Notes under the pieces: model-generated
Told to the model about the DNA's origin: nothing
The model's database searches: none
What the model saw: the letters and a program-made list of their open reading frames with translations, nothing else
Shown: positions 1,962 through 39,906 of the stretch, piece after piece
Layout of the letters: each line of letters begins with the position of its first letter
Position numbering within the stretch: position 1 is the stretch's first letter
Position numbers and translations under genes: made by a program
From: a virus
Taxonomy: Duplodnaviria; Heunggongvirae; Uroviricota; Caudoviricetes
Strand: one strand, 5' to 3'
Length of the DNA: 39,906 nucleotides
Virus record (IMG/VR): IMGVR_UViG_2737471844_000008
Coordinates: 1-39,906 of that record

Positions 1962-2324
1962 ATGTTAAAGCTATTTGCAAAGTACACCTCGATTGGTGTG
2001 CTGAACACACTTATACATTGGGTGGTTTTTGGTGTATGTATCTATGCCGCGCACACCAATCAGGCTCTTGCAAACTTCGCAGGTTTCGTTGTGGCTGTGA
2101 GCTTTAGCTTCTTCGCGAATGCAAAATTCACATTCAAAGCTTCGACTACAACGATGCGCTACATGTTATATGTAGGATTCATGGGAACACTGAGTGCTAC
2201 TGTTGGATGGGCTGCCGATAAATGTGCACTTCCTCCAATTGTCACTCTTGTCACCTTCTCCGCCATCAGCCTAGTGTGCGGTTTCGTCTATTCAAAGTTC
2301 ATTGTCTTTAGGGATGCGAAATGA
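1962..2324 (+). CDS. gtrA: GtrA, bactoprenol-linked glucose flippase (O-antigen conversion)
   Basis: 120-aa hydrophobic four-helix protein. ATG start; stop overlaps the gtrB start (ATGA), as in phage gtr operons. Confidence 0.9.
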
Positions 2325-3241
2325 AGATATCTCTGGTCGTTCCTGTCTTCAATGAAGAGGAAGCGATACCAATTTTTTATAAAACGGTACGTGAATTCGA
2401 AGAGTTGAAGCCATATGAAGTGGAAATTGTTTTTATAAATGATGGTAGCAAAGACGCTACGGAGTCAATCATTAACGCTCTGTCCGTTTCAGATCCCCTA
2501 GTTGTTCCGCTGTCATTTACACGAAACTTTGGTAAAGAACCAGCATTGTTTGCAGGGTTAGACCATGCAACCGGAGATGCTGTAATTCCAATTGATGTTG
2601 ACCTGCAAGACCCGATTGAGGTTATTCCTCATCTTATTGAAAAGTGGCAGGCAGGTGCTGATATAGTGCTTGCTAAACGTTCAGACCGTTCTACTGATAG
2701 CCGGCTTAAACGTAAATCTGCTGAATTGTTTTATAAGCTGCATAACAAAATAAGCACCCCTAAGATCGAGGAAAACGTAGGTGACTTCCGTCTGATGTCG
2801 CGAGAGGTCGTGGAGAACATCAAACTCATGCCGGAACGCAATCTTTTCATGAAGGGTGTGCTTAGTTGGGTTGGCGGTCGTACAGATGTCGTTGAATATG
2901 CCCGTGCAGAACGCGTTGCAGGAAGAACAAAATTCAACGGATGGAAACTATGGAACTTGGCGCTTGAGGGGATAACGAGCTTTTCAACCTTCCCTCTGCG
3001 CATGTGGACTTACATTGGTCTGTTCGTTGCAGGTGCAGCGTTACTTTACGGGGCATGGATGATTTTTGACACTCTCGTTTTTGGGAATGCTGTTAGAGGG
3101 TACCCATCACTTCTCGTCTCAATTCTATTTTTAGGCGGCATCCAACTTATCGGCATTGGCGTTCTTGGAGAGTACATTGGAAGGATTTACGTCGAGGTTA
3201 AACAAAGACCTAAATATATATTGAAAGGAATTAAAAAATGA
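2321..3241 (+). CDS. gtrB: GtrB, bactoprenol glucosyltransferase (GT2 family)
   Basis: 306-aa ORF with GT2 signatures ([16 protein letters not shown]) and two C-terminal transmembrane segments; high similarity to remembered phage GtrB proteins. Confidence 0.92.
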
Positions 3242-4689
3242 TAAACATTAAAATAAAATTATTAATTTTGTCCATCATTACTTCCGTTATTGTGTATGGT
3301 TATTGCTTATTTAACTTTAGTCTTTCTATAGATGGAGAGTTTTTTGATAATACCATTCACACAATATCACTTGGCAGGTGGGGTCATGCCCTGCTTCATC
3401 AGTTTATATTACCAGAGCCATACACGCCTTTCTTTTCAGTATTATTATCTTTAGTTATTATTGCCATTGCCGCATGGATGGCATCTATTTTTATAACAGA
3501 AAATACTCACGAGAGATTGGTTGTTATATTTGGTTTTTTTGCCACGCCGCAACTTGCTTATCAATTGCAGTTTACTAACCAGGCAGACACCACAGCTATT
3601 GGTATTCTGTTGGTTGTTATATCCGCGATAACATCATTTAAAGCGATGGATGGTGACAAATCATTACTTAATGCAACCATATCTATTGTATGTCTTTGCT
3701 GTGCTATATCAATATACCAGTCATTTCTTGTTGTAGCGTTTAGTGTATATGTTGGATTCTTTATCCTGAGAACAAGAAATAAAGAAAACAATAAATATAA
3801 AACATCAATAATTAAATTCTCGTTATATAGCACAGTAATATTCATACTTTCACTTGCATTGTATTTTATGTTTTTCAAAATAATATTAATTTCGTATGGA
3901 GTTGATGATAAGACTGCGGAATATTCAAGATCACAAATGGCGTGGGGTTACAGACAAAATAGTTATATAATTAATTATCTGTATAACTACACAAAAAACT
4001 TTTTGCTTGGAGATACGTTTTTTGGGTTTAGGACGTATATTGTTGGAGTGATTGCTGTAGTGGTGGTTTTTTTTAACTTAGTATTCAAACGAAACCTAAA
4101 TAATGCAACGTCATGTTTAATGTCACTTGCTTTGGTGTTATCTCCTTTAGTTCTTGTTTTTTATTTCGGCAATAACCAGATGCCACGCACTTACATTTCA
4201 ATGAGCTTTGTAGTGGCATTTTCAGTTCTGATTATATTCAGAGGCTTGAGTTTAAAGAAAGAGTTTATTATTATCCCGGTCTTCATGTGCCTTTACTCTA
4301 CTTATGCAGCATCGGCATTATTTTATTCTGATGATATTGCAAGATCTAGAGATGAGTTTATATCACGAAAGATAGTTTCTGATGCGCAGTCATTAATTAA
4401 GCATGGTGAGTCTAGTATTATAACACTTTACTTTCATGGACATATAAATAATGAAAACAGATGGAAGTTACGAAACAGTGACACATTTGGAGTGTCTTTC
4501 TTTTCTTGGGATAATGGTGACCCTAGAAGAATATGTGCATATATTTCATATTACTCACTAGCAAAAGTTAGGTGTGAAAAGATATCATCTGGATATGACG
4601 CCAACATAGCAATGAAATTGCCGCCATACCCTTACATAGGATATATAAAAAACGAAAACGGAAAACTAATAATCAATCTTGGTGGGTAA
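3238..4689 (+). CDS. GtrC-like serotype-specific O-antigen glucosyltransferase (polytopic membrane protein)
   Basis: 483-aa highly hydrophobic ORF overlapping the gtrB stop. Markedly AT-rich compared with its neighbours. Third-gene position of a gtr cluster. Confidence 0.75.
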
Positions 4690-4691
4690 AA

Positions 4692-6725
4692 TTACATAGT
4701 TGTACCATCAGCGTATTTCCAAGCTTGAGCCAGTTGATCAAAAAAAACTGGCTTTTTAGTGTCTATGTTATAGATACTGTGACCGTACCCAAGAAGGTTC
4801 TTATTTATAGCGTTTATCTGTGAGGACGTTGCAGCAGTTGGAATGCCAGACCATGCAACAGTAATTAATATCCAGTTGCTTCCAGTCCAGCGGATGTATG
4901 TTCCTGTATCTGTCTGATAAAAAATATGACCAACAGGAACACCAACTGGCCTGGCAGAAGAAAGCCCAACAACCTGGAAGCCTCTGTCGTCAATCCAAAT
5001 TCCAGCCCCTGCGTTGGTGATGAACCTTCCAAATGCCACGTCATAGTAACTGAAACCAGCAATCGCAGACGTAGTGAAGCCAGATTTCCAGGCGGCAGAG
5101 TTATCAATTGATCTAACTCGAATTTCGCGTCTTGTTGCTTCCGTTGCACTCGATGGTGACGCGTTAGATACAGTGTGAATGGAAACGATATCAACCAGCG
5201 TGCTTACAGGTTCTTCACCACGATAGATGTACTGGAAGCCATCATAGTGGGCACTCTGAGAGTCAATGAATGTCGCCCGCACACGATCTGGTCGACCATA
5301 GTAAACAGATAGCGCATTGGCTGATGCGTATGCTTCATTATAATAGCGCGAACTCTTATCCTGAATTCTCAGAACGTTTTTGTAATCCACGCCAACAGCA
5401 ATGCCAGCGGTAGTGGTGGTGAACCTGAACTCGTTATCCGAAAGAATCAGATCTCCCATTTGCCACGTTGGACTATTAATGTCGTCCTCCGCTCCTTGTG
5501 CACCAATCAAAATTCCCGTTGCGAATGTGCGGCAGCGGTTATCACTGACTTTGAATACATCTGATTTCTGGTCGTGTCTGTGCGTGAATAGAGCAAAACC
5601 ATAACCGCCAACTAGGTCATTGTTGTGCAGGTTAACGCGGTGTGTGCCAATGAATTTAAACGCGCGTTCAAACGTTGTTTCTGGTGTTTCAGTATTGTAA
5701 TTGCGCATCACAACACTGTTGTTTTGTACGAATGCGGCGCGGCTGGTTCCTGTTCCATCGGCAAAACTTGATGCGTAGACCGCATGGCGATCAAGCGGTG
5801 CGCCGGCTACACCAAAAATACAGTTGTCGACAGAGATAATCTCACAATCGATAGGGACAGTACCATAGCCATAAACACCTGCGCTCCAGTCCTGTGAAGC
5901 GAGTTGCTGGAATACGTTGGAGTAACGAACGCCATAGCACAAGTGAATCTGTGCAGTCACAGTGTTAACACCAGCACTGATGTTGCGCATTTCTGATCCT
6001 TCATAATGCGCATAAACGTTGTTCACAGTAATGCCAACTACAGCACGCCCAACACCACGAACTTTTCCGCCGTCAATTTTTACTTTAGTGGTGACGCTTT
6101 CGACGCCTGTTCCGTCAAACGTCAGGATCTGGTAGTAGGTGTTTACGTCTGTAGGCGTGAAGTTAACCCAACCGTCAGCCGTAGATTTGATTGTAATGTC
6201 TCTACCATTTAACGATCTGCGAATTGGTGTGTTTATATTCTGTACGTTATCAATGAGAACATCAGCACTGTTCTCAAGAGCGGTATCAATAGCCTGTTCA
6301 AGGCTTCCAGCCTCTGATGTTTTTACAAGACCGCGAACGCCTCCAATGTATGAAAAACCAATAGAAGATGAAAGCCTTCCCTCCAGCTGATCAGGATCAT
6401 ACTTCAGCACATTAGGAAAATAGAACTGCTTCGCCCCATACGCATCGTACACAGCCATAGAATGACCTTGCACAGTTACGAACTTGGCAATCTGTCCGTT
6501 ATATACCGGGTAACCAGCAGCGTTAATGATGATTGGTTGCGAAACAGGAACGTGAGCGCCATCTTCGTTCTCCACATAAACCTGAATCTGGTTTTCAGGA
6601 TTTACAGGGTCAGTGTCAATTTTACCGATATAAATTTTGCCATTGGCTACAGCTTTAAAAGAACGAGCCATAGTGAAAAGTTGCGAAGGCATGCTTACCA
6701 CAACATTTGCGGTGATATCTGACAT
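4692..6725 (-). CDS. Tailspike protein: P22 gp9-type head-binding domain fused to a divergent receptor-binding domain
   Basis: From [13 protein letters not shown] the first ~110 aa closely match the P22/HK620 tailspike head-binding domain; the rest is divergent. The ORF-track start at 6773 is a 16-aa upstream extension; an ATG at 6723..6725 is preceded by a GGAG Shine-Dalgarno. Confidence 0.9.
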
Positions 6726-6846
6726 TTCATTGCTCCAGACGAATGATATGATGCAACCATGATGTGATTGCATACCGAAATGGTACTATTGAGTATTTAT
6801 CCAGTAGGTTACGATGCCATTCCACCCAACTGGTGAGGCATCAAGG

Positions 6847-7107
6847 ATGTACAGCAAATACGACGAGGCGCAGTTTCACTTGAGACTTCCGCATGAACTC
6901 CACGCGAAAATTAAACAGCGCGCGAAGATGAATAACAGGTCGCTGAACTCAGAGATAATTGCAGCGATTGAAGAATCATTGGCTAAACAAAGCTCTGCAT
7001 CAGTTTACATTGACGATGCAGAGCGTATGGCAGAACAACAATCTGATATTGTTAAGAAAATTGTCTTTGATACGCTCAAGGAGCTATATAAAAAAGACAG
7101 CAGCTAA
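6847..7107 (+). CDS. mnt: Mnt-like ribbon-helix-helix repressor (immI-type), orphan
   Basis: C-terminal segment NDAERMAEQQSDIVKKIVFDTLKELYKK closely matches P22 Mnt; N-terminal RHH motif (FHLRLPHELHAKIKQRA...NGRSLNSEI). Start taken at the internal ATG (MYSKYDE). Confidence 0.8.
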   Translation: MYSKYDEAQFHLRLPHELHAKIKQRAKMNNRSLNSEIIAAIEESLAKQSSASVYIDDAERMAEQQSDIVKKIVFDTLKELYKKDSS

Positions 7108-7127
7108 CCATCAGTTACGGAGGATTT

Positions 7128-7205
7128 ATGCAAAGAGATATGCTGAATATTGCGTTCTACATATTTGGTTTTTGCACGTTCCTGGTGTTTGCGAAGCTAT
7201 TCTGA
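7128..7205 (+). CDS. Hypothetical 25-aa hydrophobic peptide downstream of mnt
   Basis: ATG at 7128 with a GGAGG Shine-Dalgarno 4 nt upstream; encodes MQRDMLNIAFYIFGFCTFLVFAKLF; its 3' end overlaps the convergent gp16-like gene. No homology evidence. Confidence 0.3.
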   Translation: MQRDMLNIAFYIFGFCTFLVFAKLF

Positions 7206-9194
7206 CAACGCATCAGACTTGGCACCCTGAGTCAGGGCGTTAATGGCCTTTTGCGCCTGCTGCATGGCTTTCTCAAACGCTGTTGATCCGCGTTTGGTGT
7301 TTGCCATTCGGAGCATTGCATTTCTGAATGGCTCGCTCTCATAGGCGCGAGTAAGAAGTCCGTAGCTTACTGCTGCGCCAGTTGTTGCAGGGTTCATTGC
7401 CGCCCCATATCCGATAATGAACGGGATGGTTTGCTGCCCTGTGGGGGTTGTTACTGCCGCTTTTGCAGCCTGCTGCGTGGATTGAAGGTAGTTTTTCAAT
7501 CCTTTCAGATAAGCAGCATCCTGCCCCTTAAATGTTATTCCAGTCTGGTTTTGCAGGATGTTAAGCTGCCGAAGGAACTGGTCAGGGGATCCGCCAGATT
7601 TCTCCATCGCCTTTCCAATGATGCCATTGCGCATTTGCGCCCTGCCAACACGACCAACTGAGTTATACAGCGTCTTAATTTCCGATTTGTTCTTGCTGAA
7701 TAGCATGTTGTTGACAACTTCCGGCGTCAGGTCTCCTTTCATGAGAACATTCTTCAGCCTGGTATTCTTTAGTTTCGCCGCTTCGTCAGCGTAGACGGCA
7801 TTGGCCTGCTGATATTTACGGAGAGTATCGTTGCCAAGATTCTGACCAATGGCACCATTGATATCGTCGGTCATCGCCTTGTAAACACGTTGAATGGCGG
7901 CATCAGAACGGTTTGGTAACACTGTCCGCTCCCCCTTCACGTCCATTCTGAACTGGCTGCGCAGATCGCTTAATTGCTTCAAATCCAGATTAACCGGACC
8001 ATCAGGGCCAGCATTGCGAACAAGCTCATCACGATATGACTGAAGTTTTGAAATTGTCTCGTTATCAGCTACCTTACCAAGCTTCTGCAGATTAGATATT
8101 TCTGTATCAATCTGCTGAATTGCTCGCGCAGGCTGAATGTTTACTCCAGCCATAGCATTCTGAACCTGCTCCAGTCGATTACCGGCGGCACGACGAATTC
8201 CTGATGTTTTCGCTTTAAGGCTGTCAATAACAACCGCTGGATCATACTCCCCGAATTTATCGGCAAATCTCTGCACCAACTGACTTCTCGCTTCCTGTTG
8301 CGTTGCTCTCATTCCGCTTGTGCCAGCCAGAGGGATATTTTCTGCTGTAGTCTGAGCCATTTTTCCGACGCGGGAAGTAGGTTGTAACAGGTCTGTGGTG
8401 TGCAGAGGCACTCCTTCACGCTCTGCAAATCTGATAGCCTGCTGCGCTTCTGGCGCAATAGCACCACGAACGCCACGATAAGCAGCGCCTAATCCACGTC
8501 CGGCAGCGTTAATAGCGCCTCCAGCCAGAACGCCAACGCCTAAATCGGTAGCGAGTTCTTCCGCATCATCTTTCGCACTATTTGCAGCAAGTGACCCTAC
8601 TGCGTTTTCTGCGAGAAGGCGAGTTGCCCCCTGAGCAATTCGACCAGCAAGTGTTGGTGCCTGTGCCGCCGCTCTCTCAATGCCAGCAGGAGTGAGGTAA
8701 GGCAATGCTTCAGCAAATACCCTTCCCTCTGTAGTTTGTGGAGTCAGCGCACCTTGCTGAAGTCCAAAGTCATGCTCTAATCCCTGCGTTGTTACTCGTG
8801 GTGCTGGTTGATATGTACCATCGCCAATGCCGAGTTTACCGCCAGCCCAAGCCGCCGCGCTTGTTACAGCATCGGCAACTGATGCAGGTATGTTTGCCAC
8901 GTTCACGCCAGCCTGCACCAGTCCACGACCAGTCTCTTTTACTGCTTCACCAAGATCAGACATAAATCCACTTTGCTGTGGTTGTTGCTGTGCTACTGGT
9001 TGTTGTGTCTCCACTGGCTGCACAGATGGCAATGGATAGGCAGCATAGAAAGCTTGCTTAGCCTGCTCTGCATTTTCTCCGGCTTGCGGGACCACAACTT
9101 CATTGAAGTATTGCTCCTGAGCCTGCGCTTTTTGTTCTGGTGCTAACGCCTGATACTGTGGAGAGGCGATAACATCTTTCCATGCTTTAGCCAT
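7197..9194 (-). CDS. Ejection (DNA-transfer) protein, P22 gp16 / Sf6 gp13-like
   Basis: 665-aa ORF in the gp16 position of the P22 gene order; Gln/Ala-rich N-terminus typical of ejection proteins. TAATG overlap with the upstream gp20-like gene. Confidence 0.8.
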   Translation of the reverse strand: MAKAWKDVIASPQYQALAPEQKAQAQEQYFNEVVVPQAGENAEQAKQAFYAAYPLPSVQPVETQQPVAQQQPQQSGFMSDLGEAVKETGRGLVQAGVNVANIPASVADAVTSAAAWAGGKLGIGDGTYQPAPRVTTQGLEHDFGLQQGALTPQTTEGRVFAEALPYLTPAGIERAAAQAPTLAGRIAQGATRLLAENAVGSLAANSAKDDAEELATDLGVGVLAGGAINAAGRGLGAAYRGVRGAIAPEAQQAIRFAEREGVPLHTTDLLQPTSRVGKMAQTTAENIPLAGTSGMRATQQEARSQLVQRFADKFGEYDPAVVIDSLKAKTSGIRRAAGNRLEQVQNAMAGVNIQPARAIQQIDTEISNLQKLGKVADNETISKLQSYRDELVRNAGPDGPVNLDLKQLSDLRSQFRMDVKGERTVLPNRSDAAIQRVYKAMTDDINGAIGQNLGNDTLRKYQQANAVYADEAAKLKNTRLKNVLMKGDLTPEVVNNMLFSKNKSEIKTLYNSVGRVGRAQMRNGIIGKAMEKSGGSPDQFLRQLNILQNQTGITFKGQDAAYLKGLKNYLQSTQQAAKAAVTTPTGQQTIPFIIGYGAAMNPATTGAAVSYGLLTRAYESEPFRNAMLRMANTKRGSTAFEKAMQQAQKAINALTQGAKSDALSE

Positions 9195-31822: not shown

Positions 31823-31828
31823 GTTGTA

Positions 31829-31872
31829 TTCCCGCATTTCGGCGGGAATGAGGACCATGACTGTTAAAGAGC
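31829..31872 (-). promoter_or_regulatory. nutR (boxA plus boxB)
   Basis: Minus-strand boxA GCTCTTTAACA starts 8 nt after the cro stop, followed by boxB hairpin UUCCCGC-CGAAAU-GCGGGAA. The same boxB recurs at nutL. Confidence 0.65.
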
Positions 31873-31879
31873 AATTTGC

Positions 31880-32065: not shown

Positions 32066-32079
32066 AGACTCGCTCCGAA

Positions 32080-32145
32080 ATTAAAGAACACTTAAATTAT
32101 CCACTAAAGGAATCTTAAGTCAAGTTTATTTAAGATGTCTTAACT
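32080..32145. promoter_or_regulatory. Right operator OR1-OR2-OR3 with divergent PR (to cro) and PRM (to c2)
   Basis: Three 18-bp P22-type operators: ATTAAAGAACACTTAAAT (32080..32097), ACTAAAGGAATCTTAAGT (32103..32120), ATTTAAGATGTCTTAACT (32128..32145). PR on the minus strand: -35 TTGACT (32118..32123), 17-nt spacer, -10 ATAATT (32095..32100). The c2 ATG directly follows OR3. Confidence 0.75.
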
Positions 32146-32796
32146 ATGAAAACTCAATTGATGGGAGAGCGCATTCGCGCTCGGAGAAAAGAACTCAAGA
32201 TCAGGCAGGCCGCACTTGGAAAGATGGTCGGCGTGTCTAATGTTGCCATATCTCAGTGGGAACGCTCTGAGACAGAGCCAAATGGAGAGAATCTTCTCGC
32301 CCTGGCTAATGCGTTGAAGTGTTCCCCTGACTATCTGATGAAAGGAGAGGAAAGTCTTTCAAACATTGCCTATCACAGTAGGCATGATCCAAGAGGGTCA
32401 TACCCTCTGATTAGCTGGGTGAGCGCAGGATGCTGGATGGAAGCTGTAGAACCATATCATAAGCGTGCAATAGATAACTGGTACGATACAACCGTAGACT
32501 GTTCAGAAGATTCGTTTTGGTTGGACGTGAAGGGAGACTCAATGACGGCTCCGGCCGGTCTCAGTATCCCTGAAGGAATGATAATACTCGTCGATCCTGA
32601 AGTAGAGCCGCGTAACGGGAAACTGGTAGTTGCAAAGCTCGAAGGAGAAAACGAGGCAACTTTCAAGAAGTTAGTTATTGATGCAGGCAGGAAGTTTCTA
32701 AAACCACTTAACCCACAATATCCGATGATCGAGATCAACGGAAACTGCAAAATCATCGGCGTAGTTGTCGATGCAAAACTAGCAAACCTTCCATAA
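32146..32796 (+). CDS. c2: C2 repressor (P22 c2; CI-type HTH plus S24 LexA-like autopeptidase)
   Basis: 216-aa ORF near-identical, from memory, to P22 C2 (QLMGERIRARRKELKIRQAALGKMVGVSNVAISQWERSETEPNGENLLAL...). Confidence 0.95.
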   Translation: MKTQLMGERIRARRKELKIRQAALGKMVGVSNVAISQWERSETEPNGENLLALANALKCSPDYLMKGEESLSNIAYHSRHDPRGSYPLISWVSAGCWMEAVEPYHKRAIDNWYDTTVDCSEDSFWLDVKGDSMTAPAGLSIPEGMIILVDPEVEPRNGKLVVAKLEGENEATFKKLVIDAGRKFLKPLNPQYPMIEINGNCKIIGVVVDAKLANLP

Positions 32797-32819
32797 GGGG
32801 GCATTCGCCCCTTTTTTTT
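32797..32819 (+). terminator. Intrinsic terminator downstream of c2
   Basis: GGGGGC-ATTC-GCCCC hairpin immediately after the c2 stop, followed by eight T residues. Confidence 0.7.
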
Positions 32820-32842
32820 ATTTCCTTTAAAAATCAAAGCAA

Positions 32843-32916
32843 AACTTAAGTTACGAAAGAAAATTTAAGTTTTCTTCAAAAATATTCTTGACCATTAATT
32901 AAAGAGATCTTAAATT
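32843..32916 (+). promoter_or_regulatory. Left operator region OL with PL promoter
   Basis: PL: -35 TTGACC (32888..32893), 17-nt spacer, -10 TAAATT (32911..32916). P22-type operator ATTAAAGAGATCTTAAAT (32898..32915) overlaps the promoter; two further TTAAG-containing operator-like sites lie at about 32843..32879. Confidence 0.6.
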
Positions 32917-32962
32917 TAAGCCATCAGCAGGACGCTGGAAGCCAAACGGAACAGATTGGCAG

Positions 32963-33003
32963 GCTCTTTAACATTGATGGGATTGTCCCGCCGAAATGCG
33001 GGA
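32963..33003 (+). promoter_or_regulatory. nutL (boxA plus boxB)
   Basis: boxA GCTCTTTAACA (32963..32973), then boxB hairpin UCCCGC-CGAAAU-GCGGGA (32986..33003), about 40-80 nt downstream of the predicted PL start; same boxB as nutR. Confidence 0.65.
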
Positions 33004-33314
33004 ACCAAAGAGTAGTTGGCTTTGGGGTGACGTGAAGTGCAGCTGCACGACGGCAACCGGAAGATAAGCACCCGGCGCGTCACCGCCAAAGTCAATTCCA
33101 TAGGCGAAATGCAGCCGCCAAACACAGCCAATGCTGCACATGCAACAGGAGGATTTATGTGAATGCATAACTTCAAAACCGAGGTTAATTAAATCTCTCG
33201 ATCCGAGCATCGACCTATTAGGTGGCGAGATGCTCTTTCTGCCCCTCATGTCGAGGGGACAGAAACCACTTTGCAATCACTATCAATTCCAAAGTTGTTT
33301 CATCGGAGGTCAAC

Positions 33315-33620
33315 ATGACAGTAGTCATTACATATCTGGCTGACGATAACGCCAGAAATCGCCGCAGAGCACGCAGACAGGCTCAACGTGAACAGGCAAT
33401 GCAAGAACAGCGACTGGCGCGAAAGATTGCGCTAAAGCTCTCTGGTTGCGTCAGAGCAGATAAAGCAGCATCAATCGGAAGCCTTCGCTGCAAGAAGGCA
33501 GAAGAAGTCGAGCGTAAACAGAACCGTATTTACTACCGCAAGCCACGCAGTGAAATGGGTGTGACTTGTGTTGGTCGCCAGAAAATGAAATTAGGCAGCA
33601 AACCACTGTATGAGGGGTGA
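33315..33620 (+). CDS. N: N antiterminator, phage-21-type
   Basis: ATG preceded by GGAGG; N-terminal arginine-rich motif (NARNRRRARRQAQREQAMQEQRLARK); C-terminal ~65 aa match phage 21 N from memory (ARKIALKLSGCVRADKAAS.GSLRCKKAEEVERKQNRIYY...). Confidence 0.85.
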   Translation: MTVVITYLADDNARNRRRARRQAQREQAMQEQRLARKIALKLSGCVRADKAASIGSLRCKKAEEVERKQNRIYYRKPRSEMGVTCVGRQKMKLGSKPLYEG

Positions 33621-33623
33621 GAT

Positions 33624-33755
33624 ATGAGCTACCAAATTCAATACAGAAGTTGCGGTAGATGGGTTTGCGGAAACTCTTTCAAAACAAAAGAACAGGCTGA
33701 GCAATACGCAAAACAAACAGGTCAGGATTATCAAATTGTAAAGACAAGGAGATAA
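33624..33755 (+). CDS. Hypothetical 43-aa protein immediately downstream of N
   Basis: ATG 3 nt after the N stop with a GAGGGG Shine-Dalgarno; encodes MSYQIQYRSCGRWVCGNSFKTKEQAEQYAKQTGQDYQIVKTRR; its stop is 1 nt before the PAPS-reductase-like ATG. Confidence 0.4.
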   Translation: MSYQIQYRSCGRWVCGNSFKTKEQAEQYAKQTGQDYQIVKTRR

Positions 33756-33756
33756 C

Positions 33757-34614
33757 ATGCCAGGATTTACAAGTAAATTCATACCAAGAAGAGAATTCAA
33801 GCATAATCCAGAAAGACTAAATGTTATTTCTTCCGGTGGTGGTACTCAAAGTAACGCAATAATCTGCTTAGTACATGCTGGCGTTCTTCCAAAGCCTGAC
33901 ATTATCGTTATGTCAGATACAGAACGTGAGGCAAGTAATGTATTTGAATATCAGAAAAAATATATAGCTCCTATTTGTGAAGATATGGGTGTTGATTACC
34001 TGATTGTTCCTAAAAGTAGATTTGCTACCTACGACATTGATGGGCCTGATCCAGACGTTCCTCTACCTGGATATTTCACAGAATACGAGGGAAGGGATTC
34101 AAAAGGAATGTGCGCTGGAAAGCAACCAGCATTTTGTTCTATAAAGTGGAAAACTGAAGTTATTCAGAGATTTTTAAATGAAAGATATGGAGAGAAGTAT
34201 CTTACAACAAGAGGAGTGGATAGTTGGATTGGGATAAGCATTGAAGAGGCTAAACGAAGAGCGAAATACCCAACTGGCAAGTGGCAGAGGCGCTATCCAC
34301 TTATTGAAATGCTAATGACTAAACAGATGGCAATTCAATGTGTAGAGGATTATGGTCTTCCTACACCACCTGCCTCGCTTTGCTGGATGTGCCCTAACAG
34401 AGATGATGATCTGTGGCTTTATATGAAAAATAACGTCCCATCTGATTTTGAAAGAGCATGTCAGCATGAAAAAGAGATACAAATGAAGTGGCCTCATTTG
34501 TGGCTTACTAAATATGGTGTTCCACTATCTGAGGCACCACTAACACCTAGTGGTGGTAAAAATGCACAAATGGATCTTATACAATTCTGCGATTCTGGAC
34601 TGTGCTTCGTTTAA
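33757..34614 (+). CDS. PAPS reductase-like PP-loop ATP pyrophosphatase family protein with C-terminal Cys cluster (accessory gene)
   Basis: 285-aa ORF; N-terminal PP-loop-like motif (VISSGGGTQSNAI) typical of the PAPS reductase/DndC/BrxP/IbrA superfamily; C-terminal cysteines (CWMC...C...CDSGLC); AT-rich coding sequence; two terminator-like hairpins follow. Confidence 0.8.
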   Translation: MPGFTSKFIPRREFKHNPERLNVISSGGGTQSNAIICLVHAGVLPKPDIIVMSDTEREASNVFEYQKKYIAPICEDMGVDYLIVPKSRFATYDIDGPDPDVPLPGYFTEYEGRDSKGMCAGKQPAFCSIKWKTEVIQRFLNERYGEKYLTTRGVDSWIGISIEEAKRRAKYPTGKWQRRYPLIEMLMTKQMAIQCVEDYGLPTPPASLCWMCPNRDDDLWLYMKNNVPSDFERACQHEKEIQMKWPHLWLTKYGVPLSEAPLTPSGGKNAQMDLIQFCDSGLCFV

Positions 34615-34751
34615 GCCGCATAACCCATTAGAGCAGAAATATTCGCTAATTAAAATTGAAAGAATAATTTCATTTATAAACCAGTTCCCTGAATCTTACC
34701 TGTTTTGCGATGGTGACCGGGAAATAGCAGAGATTAAGTTTGAGGAATGAA

Positions 34752-34776
34752 GCCGAATATTCGGCCTTTACTTTTG
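34752..34776 (+). terminator. Terminator-like palindrome downstream of the PAPS-reductase-like gene
   Basis: Perfect palindrome GCCGAATATTCGGC followed by CTTTACTTTTGG. Confidence 0.35.
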
Positions 34777-34894
34777 GCACTAACAACAGAATAAACACTG
34801 CACTGTGTATTCATTCCAACGAGTGAATACACGGAGCAATGTCGCTCGTAACTAAACAGGAGCCGACTTGTTCTGATTATTGGAAATCTTCTTT

Positions 34895-34921
34895 GCCCTC
34901 CAGTGTGAGGGCAATTTTTTT
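34895..34921 (+). terminator. Terminator-like hairpin immediately upstream of the coiled-coil gene
   Basis: GCCCTC-CAGTGT-GAGGGC stem followed by AATTTTTTT, ending 13 nt before the downstream ATG. Confidence 0.45.
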
Positions 34922-34933
34922 GATGGAGGATAT

Positions 34934-35902
34934 ATGAGTGAAGTAACAGATTTAGTTGTTATTGAAAAAGCAAATGCAATGACTGTATTTCAGTCTGCCG
35001 ACCAGATTGAAGAAATCCTTCAAAAGGTTGAACGTGAAGTTATGTCCTTTGTGCCTGATATCACAACGGCAAAGGGCAGAAAGGAGATCGCTTCTCTGGC
35101 GTATAAAGTTGCGCAGACGAAAACATATCTCGATGGTCTTGGAAAAGACCTTGTTGCTGAACTGAAGGAAATTCCAAAGCTAATTGATGCCAACCGCAAG
35201 ACAGTGCGTGATCGCCTTGATGAGCTGAAATCCAAGGCACGCCAGCCTCTTACTGATTATGAGGAGGAACAGGCACGGATTAAAGCCGAAGAAGAAGCTA
35301 AGGCAGCAGCTGAAGCTCTCGCAAAGCAAATTGAGTCTGACCATGAAATAGCTATTTTGATGGATCGCGAATTTGACCGCCAAAGAGAAGAGGCAAGACT
35401 CAAAGCGGAGCAGGAAAAGCGAGAGCATGAAGAACGCTTAAAAAGAGAAGCTGAAGAGAAAGCCAGAGCAGAAGCCGAAGCAAAGGCAAAAGCCGAAATT
35501 GAAGCAGCAGCAAGGCGAGAAGCAGAAGCTAAGGCCGCAGCGGAACGTGCAGAGCGTGAACGCATTGAAGCCGAGCAACGAGCACAGCGCGAAGCAAAAG
35601 AGGCAGCAGAACGAGCTGAAAGAGAAAAGCAGGCGGCAATTGAAGCAGAACGCCGAAAAGCACAGGAGGAGGCTGAACGAATCCGGCGCGAGGCTGAAGC
35701 AAAAGAGCAAGCCAGAATAGCAGAAGAAAAAAGAATCAAGGACGAAGAAGAGCGTAGAGCAAAGGATAAAGCTCACCGGAAAGAAGTAAATAACAAAATA
35801 CTTGCTGACCTTATCAAGGTTGGCGCATCAGAAGATGTTGCTAAAAATATCATAACAGCCATCGTAAAAGGCAAAGTATTCGCAACAAAAATAACCTACT
35901 AA
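34934..35902 (+). CDS. Coiled-coil protein with long Ala/Glu/Lys/Arg-rich TolA-like helix (unknown function)
   Basis: ATG at 34934 preceded by GGAGGA; the ORF-track start at 34880 is a TTG that would translate the terminator hairpin. About 120-aa N-terminal domain, about 180 aa of EAKA/AERA-type repeats, short C-terminal domain. Confidence 0.7.
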   Translation: MSEVTDLVVIEKANAMTVFQSADQIEEILQKVEREVMSFVPDITTAKGRKEIASLAYKVAQTKTYLDGLGKDLVAELKEIPKLIDANRKTVRDRLDELKSKARQPLTDYEEEQARIKAEEEAKAAAEALAKQIESDHEIAILMDREFDRQREEARLKAEQEKREHEERLKREAEEKARAEAEAKAKAEIEAAARREAEAKAAAERAERERIEAEQRAQREAKEAAERAEREKQAAIEAERRKAQEEAERIRREAEAKEQARIAEEKRIKDEEERRAKDKAHRKEVNNKILADLIKVGASEDVAKNIITAIVKGKVFATKITY

Positions 35903-35926
35903 TAAAACCAACATAAGGAACCACCC

Positions 35927-36058
35927 ATGATTTACGCAATCGCGGGAGGCGCTCGCATGGGTGCCTTCCAACTAAATGAATCTTTACTTGAACGAATCAC
36001 CCGTAAATTACGTGACGGATGGAAAAGAGTTGAGGTCTTATTATGCGCAATGAAATAG
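35927..36058 (+). CDS. cIII: CIII-like protein (FtsH/HflB inhibitor), 43 aa
   Basis: Manual translation gives MIYAIAGGARMGAFQLNESLLERITRKLRDGWKRVEVLLCAMK; the central ESLLERITRKLRDGWKR matches the lambda CIII core helix. AGGA Shine-Dalgarno 8 nt upstream. Confidence 0.75.
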   Translation: MIYAIAGGARMGAFQLNESLLERITRKLRDGWKRVEVLLCAMK

Positions 36059-36195
36059 CCATCAATCACCAGATGCTTCGTGCTGCACAGAACAAAGCAG
36101 TAATAGCCAGATTTATTGGTGATTCCAAAATGTGGCTTGAAGCAAATAAAGCGATGAAATCAGCTATCAACCTTCCGTGGTATCGCAGGAAATGA
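36043..36195 (+). CDS. Kil-like small protein (candidate host cell-division inhibitor), 50 aa
   Basis: Overlaps the cIII 3' end in another frame; ARFIGDSKMWLEA resembles the remembered lambda Kil motif (ATFIGDEKMFREA). Weak Shine-Dalgarno. Memory-based assignment. Confidence 0.4.
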   Translation: MRNEIAINHQMLRAAQNKAVIARFIGDSKMWLEANKAMKSAINLPWYRRK

Positions 36196-36270
36196 GTTTT
36201 ACAGATAACTGGTCAGACGAAGAATTCATTCGTCAGATGAAAGAATTAATCGGTAACGAAGGAGATATTC

Positions 36271-36441
36271 ATGTCACTTGCAACCACAGTGAAGGAGAGC
36301 AAGTTACAGAGACGCATGTACACGCAGAAAGCTCTCTGGTATCGCCATAATGGCGACCGCGAAGGAATGCGGGTATGCCTTAATTTGTCCCGAGTCGAAG
36401 TATTAAATCAGCGTTATTTCCTTGGGCCATGTCCATTCTGA
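36271..36441 (+). CDS. Hypothetical 56-aa protein upstream of the annealing-protein gene
   Basis: ATG preceded by a strong AGGAG Shine-Dalgarno at 6-nt spacing; ends 8 nt before the Erf-family gene. Confidence 0.35.
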   Translation: MSLATTVKESKLQRRMYTQKALWYRHNGDREGMRVCLNLSRVEVLNQRYFLGPCPF

Positions 36442-36449
36442 GGTGATTT

Positions 36450-37157
36450 ATGGATTTGAATAAATTCGATGAGCCATTCAGCCCTGAAGATATCGAATGG
36501 CGAATACAGCAAAGCGGTAAAACACGCGATGGCAAAGTGTGGGCTATGGTGCTGGCTTATGTCACGAACCGGGCAATCATGAAACGCCTGGACGATGTTT
36601 GCGGCAAAGCAGGATGGCGCAATGAATACCGCGATATTCCCAACAACGGCGGAGTTGAATGCGGCATATCAATCAAGATTGATTCCGAATGGGTAACCAA
36701 ATGGGATGCTGCTGAAAACACGCAGGTAGAAGCCGTCAAAGGCGGTCGTTCCGGTGCAATGAAGCGCGCTGCCGTTCAGTGGGGAATCGGTCGGTATCTG
36801 TATAACCTTGAGGAAGGTTTTGCACAAACATCTCTCGATAAAAAGCAGGGATGGCACAGGGCAAAACTGAAGGATGGAACAGGATTTTACTGGCTCCCTC
36901 CATCGCTGCCGGGATGGGCAATCCCAGCATCAGATAACAAACCATCACCAGAAAATACCAACCAGAAATCTCCATCGGTTAACTGCGAACAAATCCTGAA
37001 AGACTTCAGCGATTATGCGTCAACAGAAACTGACAAGAAAAAACTCATCGAGCGTTATCAGCGTGACTGGCAATTAATGGCTGGCAACGAGGAGGCGCAG
37101 GCTAAATGCGTTCAGGTAATGAACATCAGAGTTAACGAACTAAAACAGGCGGCATAA
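36450..37157 (+). CDS. erf: Single-strand annealing protein: Erf C-terminal domain joined to a divergent Rad52/Sak-like N-terminal domain
   Basis: C-terminal ~55 aa (EQILKDFSDYASTETDKKKLIERYQRDWQLMAGNEEAQAKCVQVMNIRVNELKQAA) match the P22 Erf C-terminus; the N-terminal domain (KGGRSGAMKRAAVQWGIGRYLYN) does not match the P22 Erf N-terminus. Confidence 0.85.
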   Translation: MDLNKFDEPFSPEDIEWRIQQSGKTRDGKVWAMVLAYVTNRAIMKRLDDVCGKAGWRNEYRDIPNNGGVECGISIKIDSEWVTKWDAAENTQVEAVKGGRSGAMKRAAVQWGIGRYLYNLEEGFAQTSLDKKQGWHRAKLKDGTGFYWLPPSLPGWAIPASDNKPSPENTNQKSPSVNCEQILKDFSDYASTETDKKKLIERYQRDWQLMAGNEEAQAKCVQVMNIRVNELKQAA

Positions 37158-37664
37158 ATGGCAAGCAGAGGCGTAAATAAGGTGATTATCCTTGGTCGGG
37201 TAGGACAAGACCCGGAAGTTCGATACTCACCATCAGGAACAGCGTTCGCTAACCTGACAATAGCCACGTCAGAACAATGGCGAGATAAAAATACTGGCGA
37301 GCAAAAGGAATTGACTGAATGGCATCGTGTTGCTGTATCCGGGAAACTGGCTGAGGTCGTGGGGCAGTATGTGAAAAAAGGTGATCAGATTTATTTCGAG
37401 GGAATGCTGAGAACCAGAAAGTGGAAAGACCAGTCAGGGCAAGACCGTTACACAACCGAGGTTCATGTCGGAATTAATGGCGTGATGCAAATGCTTGGCG
37501 GCATTGGCGACAGCAAACAACAAGCAGCCAGCAGGCAATCACAGAAGCCACAGCAGCAATCATCACCAGCACAACACAACGAACCTCCGATGGATTTTGA
37601 CGACGATATACCCTTTGCACCAGTAACTCTCCCCTTCCCTCGTCACGCTATTCACGCAATTTAA
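37158..37664 (+). CDS. ssb: Single-stranded DNA-binding protein (SSB)
   Basis: 168-aa ORF with an OB-fold N-terminus ([38 protein letters not shown]), Gln/Pro-rich linker and acidic C-terminal tail (DFDDDIPF); start abuts the erf stop. Confidence 0.93.
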
Positions 37665-37677
37665 TCAGGAGAAAATC

Positions 37678-37971
37678 ATGCCAGCGCCTCAGTATGGTGC
37701 GGATGACCCACGCCGCTGTTCCGGCAATTCCGTATCGGAGGTGCTGGATAAATTCAGGAAAAACTACGACCGGATAATGTCGCTACCGCAGGAAACGAAA
37801 GAGGAAAAGGAATTTCGCCACTGTATATGGCTTGCAGAGAAAGAAGAACGCGAGCGAATTTACCAGACATCAATCCGACCATTCCGCAAAGCCACATATA
37901 CCCACTTCCCTGAAATTGACCCGCGCCTGCGTAATTACCGCTCACGCTATGGCGCTATCAGTAATGACTGA
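37678..37971 (+). CDS. Hypothetical protein (97 aa)
   Basis: ATG preceded by an AGGAGA Shine-Dalgarno; no recognised motif. Confidence 0.5.
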
Positions 37972-37981: not shown

Positions 37982-38146
37982 ATGAGAGGACTTGCATACA
38001 ATCCCGGCATTCTTCCGGCAGAAATGATTATTCGCCAACGCGTAAAGCCAATGCCATCGAGAGAGGAATTGCTTAAGAGAAATTCTTTTCCATCAGTAAA
38101 TCAAAACAAATATCTGAATGCGATGTTGCGGAGTGGGAAGAAATGA
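37982..38146 (+). CDS. Hypothetical small protein (54 aa)
   Basis: ATG at 37982 with a GAGGAA Shine-Dalgarno; stop overlaps the next gene's ATG (ATGA). The ORF-track start at 37832 overlaps the preceding gene. Confidence 0.4.
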
Positions 38147-38850
38147 AACAAATGTCACTAATTGAGATGGATGGATTCCTGAAAGGTAAATGCTTCCCAC
38201 GAGATTTAAAGGTTAACGAAACAAACGCTGAATATCTTGTCCGTAAGTTCGGTGAACTTGAATCAAAACTCAACGAGCAGCGTGAGTATTACGAGGGCGT
38301 TATCTCGGATGGGAGTAAGCGCATAGCAGAACTGGAAAAACAATGCGCCGAATGGGAGCGAAAAGAATTAAGCAACTTTGAAGAGTGTGCTGCTATGGCT
38401 GAACGTATCGAAGAGTTGCAGACAAACTCTGCACCAGATTCGTTTGGCATCATCGGTGAAAATATTCGAACACAGGATAATCGAATAACGTCAGACCCTA
38501 TGTTTTGTGTGTATCAAAAGCGCGAAATCGTTGTTGATGCTGATTATGACTATGACCGGATTGTCTGGGTTGATGAAGATGGCAATGAAGCCAATAAACG
38601 CCAAAGTCGTCGTCTCGAACTACTTCACGAAAACTTTCGAGAGCCACCAGAAAAATGGCGGCGCGTTGCTGTGAAAGATATTGATGAATTCGTTACCTGC
38701 TGTTTCACCGAACAGGGTTGTAAAGACTACCTGGCAGTCAATGGTCACAATCTTCGCTTGCCATTTATATATGTAAAAAGCGGTTTCAGGAACGCTGAAT
38801 ATATCGGCATAAGAAACTGGCTTGCTGGCATTCGCATCAAAGGAGAGTGA
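38143..38850 (+). CDS. Hypothetical protein (235 aa), early-left accessory region
   Basis: ORF with an N-terminal coiled-coil segment and a Cys-containing C-terminal domain (CCFTEQGC); coupled to flanking genes by overlapping stop and start codons. Confidence 0.55.
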
Positions 38851-38851
38851 T

Positions 38852-39334
38852 ATGACCACTTTTACCGACAAAGAACTGATTAAAGAAATCAAAGAGCGCA
38901 TAGGCAGCTTGGACGTTCGAGACAATATTGAGCGTCGGGCTTATGAAATCGCACTGGCATCGCTGGAAGCAGAGCCGGTGGCGTGGAAGGTAACATTCAC
39001 GCAAATTGACCGTGAATATAACACGTTCACTGGTATGTATTCTGACAAAGCAGAAGTCGAACGGTGGGTGCGGCTGCATAAAGCATGTAATTTTCGGGCA
39101 GATATAACACCGCTTTATACCGCCAAGCCAGTGCCGGTAACTCCGGATGATTGGATAAGCTGTAGTGAGCGAATGCCGAAAGGGTATGCTGATGTGTTAG
39201 TGACCGATGGCGAGCATGTCGAGGTTAAATGGTGGGATGAATCTGGGTATTGGAATAGTTGGACGGAACTTAACTCAGATATCTTTGCCGATGAAATAAC
39301 TCACTGGATGCCGCTACCAGAGCCTCCACTTTGA
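38852..39334 (+). CDS. Phage protein with C-terminal DUF551-like domain
   Basis: ATG at 38852 after an AGGAGAG Shine-Dalgarno; C-terminal ~60 aa (WISCSERMPKGYADVLVTDGEHVEVKWWDESGYWNSW...THWMPLPEPP) resemble the DUF551 module of Ea22-like proteins (memory-based). Confidence 0.6.
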   Translation: MTTFTDKELIKEIKERIGSLDVRDNIERRAYEIALASLEAEPVAWKVTFTQIDREYNTFTGMYSDKAEVERWVRLHKACNFRADITPLYTAKPVPVTPDDWISCSERMPKGYADVLVTDGEHVEVKWWDESGYWNSWTELNSDIFADEITHWMPLPEPPL

Positions 39335-39430
39335 AAGCGAAGCTTATACATATCTTTTACATCAGCAATCTATTGTTAATCTCCAATCAATGTTACGTTG
39401 TCATCTCACTCATGCTTTGGAGGTAGTGAT

Positions 39431-39610
39431 ATGTCTTGTCCAAAATGCGGTTCTGGAAATATTGCAAAAGAAAAAACAATGCGTGGATGGTCTGGTGATT
39501 ATGTGTGCTGCGATTGTGGATACAACGACTCTAAAGACGCATTTGGAGAGCGTGGTAAAAACAAGTTTGTCAAAATTAATAAAGAACGCGAAGGCAACGA
39601 AAAAAGCTAA
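39431..39610 (+). CDS. Small zinc-ribbon protein (CxxC...CxxC)
   Basis: 59-aa ORF from an ATG preceded by GGAGG; encodes MSCPKCGSGNIAKEKTMRGWSGDYVCCDCGYNDSKD... with two Cys pairs. Confidence 0.45.
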   Translation: MSCPKCGSGNIAKEKTMRGWSGDYVCCDCGYNDSKDAFGERGKNKFVKINKEREGNEKS

Positions 39611-39675
39611 TTTATTTATTCATATATGAAAACAATGTAACCAATATTCGAATTGAAGAACTGAAAGAACACCAA

Positions 39676-39699
39676 GCCGCCTGATGGCGGTTTCTTTTT
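39676..39699 (+). terminator. Intrinsic terminator upstream of xis
   Basis: GCCGCC-TGAT-GGCGG hairpin followed by TTTCTTTTT. Confidence 0.6.
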
Positions 39700-39714
39700 G
39701 CCTGGAGAATTAAG

Positions 39715-39906
39715 ATGACCGATACCAGCCTGATTCCTGAGAAAGAAGTGATGAACAAGCTCGGTGTTTCATCACGTCAGACAATCTGGAACTATACCAA
39801 ACGGCACGGATTTCCGAAGCCAGTCAGAACCCACCCCAAATCATACCTTCGTGAAGCTGTTGAAGGGTGGATTCTTAACGGTGGCGTTAATCAGAAATGC
39901 TCCTGA
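39715..39906 (+). CDS. xis: AlpA/Xis-family excisionase or small HTH regulator
   Basis: 63-aa ORF with the AlpA-family pattern (LIPEKEVMNKLGVSSRQTIWNYTKRHGFPKPVRTHPKSYLREAVEGWI); last early-left gene before the window edge, where an integrase would be expected next. Confidence 0.7.
   Translation: MTDTSLIPEKEVMNKLGVSSRQTIWNYTKRHGFPKPVRTHPKSYLREAVEGWILNGGVNQKCS

Follow-up and report, generated by a model that had tools for sequence, protein, structure and literature searches.

The 39,906-nucleotide DNA analysed here (IMG/VR record IMGVR_UViG_2737471844_000008, positions 1 to 39,906; hereafter, the window) carries a P22-like (Lederbergvirus) temperate prophage of ~38.5 kb or more, inserted in the 5′ end of the Escherichia coli gene sbcB, beside dacD. 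Very probably, this prophage is a patchwork of modules that circulate among the lambdoid phages of E. coli, Shigella and Salmonella, with the RNA-recognition parts of its N antiterminator and nut sites being of the HK620 type. Textbooks have described the modular mosaicism of lambdoid and P22-like phages for decades; the kind of element is thoroughly known, and only the particular combination is new. As a discovery it carries little weight, the key regulatory block being already present, nearly unchanged, in phage CUS-3. It does provide a clean worked example in which specificity partners stay linked while their surroundings are exchanged, and in which even the 101-amino-acid N protein is assembled from exchangeable parts. 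An earlier note on this DNA, made from the sequence alone, had described a modular mosaic of a 'P22/Sf6-type virion', 'P22 immC', phage-21-type N and nut sites, and lambda-type Q, nin and lysis genes. The mosaic itself was borne out over essentially the whole element, and some of the labels had to be changed.

Module composition and joints

Seven reference phages were fetched, and every gene and the DNA of the window were compared with lambda (NC_001416), P22 (NC_002371), Sf6 (AF547987), Sf101 (NC_027398; a Shigella flexneri serotype-converting phage), phage 21 (OL657228), CUS-3 (CP000711; a K1-specific P22-like prophage of E. coli RS218) and HK620 (AF335538). The fraction of the prophage with at least 90% nucleotide identity was 0.58 for Sf101, 0.40 for CUS-3, 0.38 for Sf6, 0.17 for HK620, 0.14 for lambda, 0.08 for P22 and 0.05 for phage 21, and 0.77 for all seven combined. 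Identities were bimodal rather than graded. Against Sf6, gp10 was 99% identical, the adjacent gp4-like protein 42%, and the coat protein gave no hit; against lambda, Q was 99% identical and none of the virion genes had a match. These bimodal identities rule out uniform divergence as the source of the pattern. A tiling of the prophage with the smallest number of changes of reference needed 38 switches and 39 segments, of which ~16 are blocks of at least 300 bp, unmatched stretches included.

Uniform similarity to a single described phage, which would have contradicted the mosaic proposed earlier, was looked for and not found, the best cover being 58%. None of 50,697 phage records covers at least 80% of either half of the window (best per half: vB_EcoP-720R6, 58%, and Sf101, 56%), nor does any of 5,426 complete E. 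coli genomes cover 80% of either half. None of 67 IMG/VR loci is collinear with the whole element, each being a different mosaic. Because the exact combination is absent from the phage, E. coli and sampled IMG/VR collections, the prophage is a new member of this group.

The best single match, Sf101, shares the sbcB attachment core, the procapsid block, the terminase, the replication module (100%), most of the nin region, Q and the lysis genes. It differs in its immunity region (C2 53%, no Cro hit), has a lambda-type N motif and nut sites and a P22-type tail needle, gives no hit to the gp16 homologue and only 63% identity to gp20, carries the acetylase gene oacB in place of gtrABC, and has another tailspike body. 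CUS-3 shares the procapsid block (95-100% protein identity) and the run of genes and sites from cII through cro, c2 and nutL to N (DNA 99.1% over 31482-33120 and 98.1% over 33285-33607), including the same boxB, the same chimeric N and the same insert in the N leader. It differs in TerS (30%), the ejection proteins (34-47%) and the needle, which is matched only over its N-terminal half (60%); CUS-3 also has an endosialidase tailspike, a phage-21-type Q, DnaB-type replication genes and an argW-type integrase site, and no gtr operon. Sf6 shares gp12 and gp13 (97-98%), the knobbed needle (86%), TerS (88%, in agreement with the earlier note), Rz/Rz1 (98%), the early-left genes including erf (98-100%) and the overall architecture. 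Unlike the window, it has a lambda-type N and boxB, a 434-type immunity region, a phage-21-type Q with tRNAs, an oac gene and integration at argW; its scaffold, portal and gp4 are only 33-56% identical to those of the prophage and its coat protein gave no hit.

HK620 shares both boxB sequences with their flanks, N residues 1-35, Q (99%) and the type of early terminator after PR′, but differs in a P22-like N C-terminus, the absence of the 203-bp leader insert, another immunity region, an Sf6-like procapsid and other replication genes. Phage 21 shares the repressor and Cro (97%), OR except for one base, the middle and C-terminus of N in near-identical form, and NinB, NinE and NinG at 98-99%; its boxB at both nut sites, its arginine-rich motif, its lambda-like siphovirus virion, and its Q and lysis genes are different. 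Lambda shares CII, Q, NinB, NinG, NinH, NinI, S and R at 96-100%, as had been stated before, yet only 14% of the DNA and no virion genes. P22 shares C2 and Cro (92-95%), Q (97%), NinE and NinF (100% and 95%), GtrA and GtrB (78% and 88%), the virion gene order and the tailspike head-binding domain. Only 8% of the DNA matches P22 at 90% identity or more, its coat protein is 29% identical and its TerS and TerL gave no hit.

Joints were defined as clustered ends of high-identity alignments, and were scored as near a boundary when they fell in intergenic DNA or no more than 30 bp from a gene end. By this measure 52 of the 87 clusters were at gene ends or intergenic, against a background of 19% (binomial p ~7e-17, a value to be taken only as a guide, since the ends of alignments stand in imperfectly for joints and the clusters are non-independent). 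Break points recurred across several references at 6387 (where the head-binding domain of the tailspike meets its receptor-binding domain), 13925 (between gp10 and gp4), 20972, 22296, 22614 (inside Rz), 25057 (the Q/ninI boundary), 26645, 27043 and 27209 (edges of ninF and ninE), 27952 and 28457 (edges of ninB and ninA), 31470, 34763, 37678 and 39302. The earlier proposal that the joints are candidate recombination hotspots therefore held in so far as they are recurrent places enriched at gene boundaries, with alignment ends standing proxy for the joints themselves. Multi-module stretches remain collinear with Sf101 (12534-20752 and 27952-31470), CUS-3 (31482-33120) and Sf6 (7127-12121 and 34764-37186).

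The comparison showed that recognition partners travel together. The arginine-rich motif of N keeps both boxB sequences, the operators stay with the repressor and Cro, the Q-binding site goes with Q, and the genes for coat, scaffold, portal and gp4 move as a set. According to the model established for lambdoid phages, recombination would take place between co-infecting phages and resident prophages, at short conserved linkers or at random, and selection for function would afterwards leave joints at gene and domain borders and hold interacting partners together. Recombination followed by selection would thus account for the position of the joints as well as for the linkage of the recognition partners. 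Related phages have been described in similar terms: Sf101 was termed 'highly mosaic' (PMC4159516), the same kind of mosaic was reported for epsilon34 (PMC2629481), and 'at least 25 sections' are shared between phage L and P22 (PMC8022706).

Two other origins of the pattern were considered. Reads of several related prophages might have been collapsed into a chimeric contig, and E. coli genomes do contain a median of three places similar to the window, so that repeats able to mislead short-read assemblers exist. An artefact of this kind is nevertheless highly unlikely, given the perfect synteny, the single copy of each function and the intactness of all open reading frames (ORFs); the joints lie at gene boundaries and at break points of independently sequenced phages, large stretches spanning several modules are collinear with real phages, and host DNA meets the prophage at the exact att core. 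Alternatively, the prophage could have descended vertically, without recombination, from an ancestor shared with Sf101 or CUS-3, the patches being fast-evolving genes. Rapid variation is known for tailspike bodies, ejection proteins and ea genes, and Sf101 alone covers 58% of the element. Against vertical descent, blocks of 95-100% identity abut blocks without detectable DNA similarity, and the blocks unmatched in one relative are 95-99% identical to another phage, as are the ejection proteins to Sf6, cII to lambda, and the immunity region and N to CUS-3. Some replacements are also non-homologous (primase-helicase versus DnaB-type P; MT-A70 methyltransferase versus NinC). We consider this explanation extremely unlikely.

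Nothing in the sequence speaks against a mosaic with HK620-type RNA recognition, but several points limit how far this account reaches. About 23% of the prophage, namely gtrC and the tailspike body, rha, the methylase gene, orf285 and part of the ea region, has no match of at least 90% in the seven references. Local divergence also ends alignments, and can mimic a joint. The integrase end lies outside the window, which bears on completeness and inducibility. The boxB hexaloop (or a GAAA tetraloop closed by a C-U mismatch) differs from the loops of lambda, P22 and phage 21, and literature searches gave no binding or structural data for this pair of boxB and motif.

N antiterminator, nut sites and immunity region

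The boxB sequence TCCCGCCGAAATGCGGGA had two matches in the window, one per nut site, where 0.02 were expected by chance. It is present at both sites exactly as written in the earlier note (CCCGC-CGAAAU-GCGGG) and is, as stated there, unlike that of lambda. nutR (31830-31872, minus strand) consists of boxA GCTCTTTAACA at 31862-31872 and boxB at 31830-31847; nutL (32963-33003, plus strand), which is identical to the nutL of HK620 and CUS-3, consists of boxA at 32963-32973 and boxB at 32986-33003. The boxA precedes each boxB by 14 or 12 nt, and boxB folds into a stem of 6-8 bp with a 6-nt loop. At both sites this boxB is the one found in HK620 and CUS-3, and it differs from those of lambda, P22, Sf6 and phage 21, the last having CTCAACCTAACCGTTGAG at nutL and CACCTCTAACCGGGTG at nutR. 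Alignments around the two sites agree with this assignment. On the nutR side, 31769-31872 (104 bp) is 100% identical to HK620, and similarity to phage 21 and P22 starts only from boxA (31860-31865); on the nutL side, 32919-33096 is 99.4% identical to HK620, and similarity to phage 21 ends at 32974, the end of boxA. As phage 21/P22 similarity ends at boxA and HK620 identity continues beyond it, the conserved boxA coincides with a joint on both sides of the immunity core.

The N gene (33315-33620, plus strand) encodes a protein of 101 amino acids that is 97% identical to CUS-3 N and 69% identical overall to phage 21 N. Residues 1-35, the arginine-rich motif DDNARNRRRARRQAQREQ among them, do not differ from those of HK620 N; the corresponding motif of phage 21 is GTAKSRYKARRAELIAERR. 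Residues ~36-68 are common to HK620 and phage 21, and residues ~69-99 match phage 21 (also Sf101 and lambda) and not HK620, whose C-terminus is P22-like. In the DNA, similarity to HK620 extends over 33300-33506 and similarity to phage 21 (97.9%) over 33413-33607, and the 94-bp overlap shared by both parents (33413-33506) is the likely crossover zone. Judged from these alignments, the N gene is a hybrid within itself, joining an N-terminus of HK620 type to a C-terminus of phage-21/lambda type. The N of CUS-3 is built in the same three parts, and the whole block from cII to N is 96-99% identical to CUS-3, which means that this combination has been sequenced before and is not a new joint.

The earlier note had assigned N and both nut sites to phage 21, as a specificity unit beside P22 immC. 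Of the three classical N types phage 21 is indeed the best match to the whole protein: residues ~36-99 are near-identical, boxA and the upstream leader are shared, and c2 and cro are 97% identical. The parts that would confer specificity do not fit, however, since boxB and the arginine-rich motif both differ from those of phage 21 and exactly the boxB and motif of the window are carried by HK620 and CUS-3. A phage-21-type unit is thereby refuted at the level of sequence, and we regard it as very unlikely; the boxB and the motif assign the N/nut specificity to the HK620/CUS-3 type, and only residues ~36-99 of N keep the phage 21 label. Comparing boxB with the type of N, as had been suggested, thus gave a consistent result only under the HK620/CUS-3 label. 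The case illustrates that a module named for the overall resemblance of its protein ('N resembles phage 21') can be given the wrong functional specificity type.

The covariation of N and nut that had been proposed was well supported. IMG/VR loci were fetched via the leader motif, and the HK620-type motif was accompanied by the boxB of the window in 52/52 loci and the P22-type motif by the P22 boxB in 4/4, although the leader between boxB and N is shared by both groups. One apparent exception, locus L041, was rejected, as a 66-amino-acid gene sits there between the leader and an N with the same motif. Among the fetched loci (L010-L076), a single HK620-type motif was seen with three N C-terminal ends, which were phage 21-like, HK620/P22-like and Sf6-like. 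Assignment of the N motif to the H-19B type was also rejected; the experimentally studied N of H-19B has the motif RSRRRER (PMC3526286).

If the lambda paradigm applies, the PL and PR transcripts would carry nutL and nutR, respectively, and NusB and S10 would bind boxA. By homology with lambda N, residues ~10-30 would bind the boxB hairpin UCCCGC-CGAAAU-GCGGGA (UCCCGCCGAAAUGCGGGA), the mode of recognition being presumed by analogy. The middle and C-terminal parts of N would contact NusA and RNA polymerase, leading to read-through of early terminators.

The immunity core between the two nut sites (31880-32916, both strands), characterized by comparison with CUS-3, phage 21 and P22, contains cro (31880-32065, minus strand), OR/PR/PRM, the repressor gene c2 (32146-32796, plus strand), the tIMM terminator and OL/PL (~32840-32916); matches to the promoter consensus are present at PR and PL. 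Cro and C2 are 100% identical to those of CUS-3, 97% to those of phage 21, and 95% and 92%, respectively, to those of P22, in line with the P22 resemblance noted before. Residues 27-53 of C2 (MVGVSNVAISQWERSETEPNGENLLAL), which probably hold the helix-turn-helix, are identical in the window, CUS-3, phage 21 and P22. Over ~90 positions of OR there were no differences from CUS-3, one from phage 21 and three from P22. By these comparisons the repressor, Cro and operators are of an immunity type common to P22 and phage 21. Lambda immP22 hybrids have classically been reported to share immunity with phage 21.

The adjacent cII gene (31478-31771, minus strand) is of lambda type, with protein identities of 96% to lambda CII and 99% to CUS-3, and a lambda DNA match of 97.7% over 31438-31788. 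Its product is only 51% identical to P22 C1, so that a strict immC, with a P22-type c1/cII activator, is not present. The designation 'P22 immC' therefore suits the repressor, Cro and operators, a set also found in phage 21, and does not suit the activator.

Structured leader between nutL and N

The leader of N (33004-33314, plus strand) consists of a long hairpin (~33015-33096) followed by a 203-bp insert (33097-33299). Its folding z-score was -4.8, and that of the CUS-3 copy was -5.05; no Rfam family matched the leader. The insert is present in the window and CUS-3 and absent from HK620 and phage 21. It carries AGGAGGATTTATGTGA, in which an ATG-TGA start-stop comes after a Shine-Dalgarno sequence. 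We found the insert in 64 IMG/VR contigs, as two strongly diverged alleles and recombinants between them, and every copy keeps an invariant 18-mer; AGGAGGAUUUAUGUGA, with a strong ribosome-binding site directly before a start and a stop codon, is likewise the same in every copy. The mini-ORF motif (AGGAGGATTTATGTGAAT) was also kept in 60/60 loci that were fetched via an independent anchor 150 nt away. In the otherwise diverged insert hairpin stems are conserved, and five predicted base pairs show compensatory changes.

The insert is joined to both HK620-type and P22-type boxB and N, indicating that it moves as a separate module between N/nut types. It is possible, although rather doubtful, that the insert is a cis-regulatory RNA module of a kind not described before, serving to control the synthesis of N or to protect the long leader. 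A ribosome held at the start-stop could keep Rho or RNase away, or could gate the ribosome-binding site of N. Such a module could be analogous to, yet different from, the RNase III-sensitive leader of lambda N.

The hairpin at 33015-33096 (plus strand, ~20 bp) lies directly 3′ of the nutL boxB and is common to HK620 and phage 21. In the phage 21 version three stem changes keep the pairing (U-A to G-C, G-U to G-C and C-G to U-G). This hairpin may correspond to the structure that makes the lambda N leader sensitive to RNase III. ORFs on the opposite strand in the DNA between c2 and N (32916-33276, minus strand) were treated as spurious, conserved DNA being all that supports them.

Host flank, virion and other modules

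The left end of the prophage is defined by its junction with host DNA. Positions 1-1411 match the dacD-sbcB region of E. coli chromosomes at 100% identity, with dacD at 1-1173 (minus strand), outside the prophage, as annotated in the matching chromosomes. The sbcB gene is interrupted after codon 16, and a 20-codon stub is left at the attR end (1376-1438, plus strand; translation MMNDGKQQSTFLFHDY), in which the 16 native codons are followed by phage DNA and a stop. The core of attR, TTTCACGATTACG (1412-1424, within sbcB codons 13-17), is the sole exact match in the window to the 13-bp att core CGTAATCGTGAAA of the sbcB-integrating lambdoid phages Sf101 and phage 2851, and it lies at the prophage/sbcB junction. 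That core, used for integration in the 5′ end of sbcB, was defined previously (PMC4159516). Similarity to Sf101 starts at ~1395-1444. Given the attR core, the element starts at ~1412 and not at 1962, where the earlier note had it begin. The attP of Sf101 reads as an alternative sbcB N-terminus (…KQPTFLFHDY), and the phage may supply a new sbcB 5′ end at the other junction, beyond the window. The right end of the prophage runs past 39906, and the integrase lies beyond the window.

From left to right, gtrABC (plus strand) is followed by the tailspike gene (minus), an mnt-like gene (plus), a complete P22-type virion gene set, the terminase, rha and lysis genes (minus), then Q, nin, replication, cII and cro (minus), and finally c2, N and the early-left genes (plus). 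This order is fully syntenic with Sf6, Sf101 and CUS-3. All expected genes are intact, and from its sequence the prophage looks ordinary and apparently intact. A tRNA scan of the window found none, so the prophage is without the tRNA genes that follow Q in Sf6 and phage 21. Rfam at gathering thresholds gave zero matches across the whole window.

The O-antigen glucosylation operon (1962-4689, plus strand) consists of gtrA and gtrB, whose products are 78% and 88% identical to those of P22, and a rare gtrC (3238-4689), whose product matches Pfam Glucos_trans_II. The tailspike gene (4692-6773, minus strand) combines a P22-type head-binding domain (~6387-6773; residues 17-129 match Pfam PF09008 Head_binding, E 2e-66) with a rare receptor-binding domain; every reference stops matching at 6387, leaving 4692-6386 as the body. 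DNA of 3226-6400, which spans gtrC and the tailspike body, had no megablast match in the 50,697 phage records and was found in 1-2 of 5426 E. coli genomes, which is as far as its origin could be followed. The two genes are probably a matched pair for an uncommon O-antigen, and probably represent a new O-antigen specificity. At the position of the 'ant moron', a gene for an Mnt/Arc-like repressor (6814-7107, plus strand; 98% to Sf101 gp14, with Arc-like PHROG hits) is present, with no ant or arc gene.

Between 7197 and 20890 each position of the late operon is filled by an intact homologue, in the Lederbergvirus order TerS, TerL, portal, scaffold, coat, gp4, gp10, needle (gp26), gp14, gp7, gp20 and gp16, with the mnt-like gene and the tailspike gene coming next. 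The homologues of the P22 ejection proteins gp16 and gp20 (7197-10489, minus strand, as is the whole operon) are of Sf6 type (98% and 97% to Sf6 gp13 and gp12) and are 34-50% identical to those of P22, CUS-3 and HK620. The segment between the gp20 homologue and the needle (10499-11649) is 83-99% identical to every P22-like reference. The tail needle (11649-12497) had been likened to that of P22. It proved to be of Sf6 type, with a C-terminal knob and 86% identity to Sf6 gp9 over all 282 residues, compared with 61% to P22 gp26 over residues 1-137 only. The gp10-like head completion protein (12497-13915) is 93-100% identical to all P22-like references, and DNA similarity to Sf6 and HK620 stops exactly at 13925, the gp10/gp4 boundary.

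The procapsid block that begins there (13925-19051; gp4-like, orf75, coat, scaffold and portal) is 95-100% identical to CUS-3 and 97-100% to Sf101, and 25-56% identical or undetectable in P22 and Sf6. Identities to CUS-3 were 95% for coat, 100% for scaffold, 97% for portal and 100% for the gp4 homologue; coat is 29% identical to P22 and gave no hit to Sf6, and portal is 35% identical to P22 and 56% to Sf6. On these identities the gp4/coat/scaffold/portal block is a third, CUS-3 type of P22-like procapsid genes. The label 'P22/Sf6-type virion' was accordingly too coarse, and gp4, which had been described as P22-like, is only 41% identical to P22. The terminase genes (19053-20890) encode a TerL that is 98-99% identical to those of Sf6, Sf101, CUS-3 and HK620, a type common to all E. 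coli/Shigella members and without a hit to the P22 terminase, and a TerS that is 88% identical to those of Sf6, Sf101 and HK620.

Next to the terminase in gene order is a divergent allele of the Rha-family regulator gene (21566-22120, minus strand; Pfam Phage_pRha and ORF11CD3), 44-49% identical to rha of P22, Sf101 and CUS-3. The lysis cassette (22289-23506, minus strand) is itself composite, the description as lambda-type holding for R (98%) and S (99%) and failing for Rz/Rz1, which are of Sf6/P22 type. For Rz, identity falls from 98% with Sf6 to 89% with P22 and 57% with lambda; Rz1 is at 22345-22527. Similarity to lambda, phage 21 and HK620 begins within Rz, at 22614.

The late regulator gene Q (24433-25056) and the PR′ promoter/Q-binding region (~24348-24432) form one unit on the minus strand (24348-25056). 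Q is 99% identical to lambda and HK620 and 97% to P22 gp23, and is as much 'P22-type' as lambda-type. The Q proteins of lambda and P22 are reported to be interchangeable (PMC8022706). The promoter, Q-binding and pause regions are near-identical across lambda, P22, HK620 and the window. Past the pause region the sequence diverges from lambda and has a short terminator hairpin of the P22/HK620 type (AAAGCCCTGAG...CTCGGGGCTTTTT). Despite the 99% identity to lambda Q, the late leader (24230-24300, minus strand) lacks the lambda-like 194-nt '6S RNA' leader that ends at tR′.

The nin region (25053-28457, minus strand) contains NinI, NinH, NinG, NinF, NinX, NinE, NinD, an MT-A70 methyltransferase, NinB and NinA (28380-28457), and holds many short joints. 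NinB, NinG, NinH and NinI are 98%, 99%, 100% and 96% identical to lambda. NinE and NinF, which had also been called near-identical to lambda, are 93% and 87% identical to it, yet closer to P22 (100% and 95%). The MT-A70 DNA methyltransferase gene (27353-27943, minus strand; Pfam, and MTase_II in PADLOC) occupies the position of NinC, and tblastn detected no homologue of it in the nin regions of the seven references. The replication module (28458-31445, minus strand) is of Sf101 type and encodes a Toprim/DnaB-like primase-helicase (Pfam Toprim_2, DnaB_C), an O-like initiator and a small orf48-like protein, 100% identical to Sf101 gp45, gp44 and gp43; identity to the O proteins of lambda and P22 is 45-48% or less.

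Directly after N lies a rare accessory gene, orf285 (33757-34614, plus strand), for a PAPS-reductase-like protein of 285 amino acids with a PP-loop (SGGGTQS) and conserved cysteines. It matched PHROG 424 at 4e-36 and PADLOC SspD at 1e-7, and lambda NinC distantly (22%, E 1e-4). There was no match in Pfam or NCBIfam, and a profile search against the PDB gave only a marginal match (PptA, E 0.0055). Homologues are 'hypothetical proteins' in Enterobacterales, Yersinia and Serratia among them, and in Vibrio. The DNA of 33621-34760 had no megablast match in the 50,697 phage records, and orf285 DNA was present in 2/5,426 E. coli genomes, beyond which no origin could be traced. The rare gtrC/tailspike pair and this PP-loop gene may be of interest to those who work on host range or phage accessory genes.

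The early-left genes (34752-37971, plus strand) comprise a gp33-like gene, cIII (35927-36058), kil, two small genes, erf, ssb and abc2. They are mostly of Sf6 type, with 98-100% identity except for ssb (67%) and a DNA match to Sf6 of 98.6% over 34764-37186. The variable ea region that follows (37982-39906, plus strand) encodes DUF2737, Ea22-like and DUF551 proteins and eaG, together with an AlpA-family excisionase-like gene. In the last ORF (39715-39906), positions 39715-39903 are 100% identical to gp19 of Sf101, the gene that adjoins int in that phage.

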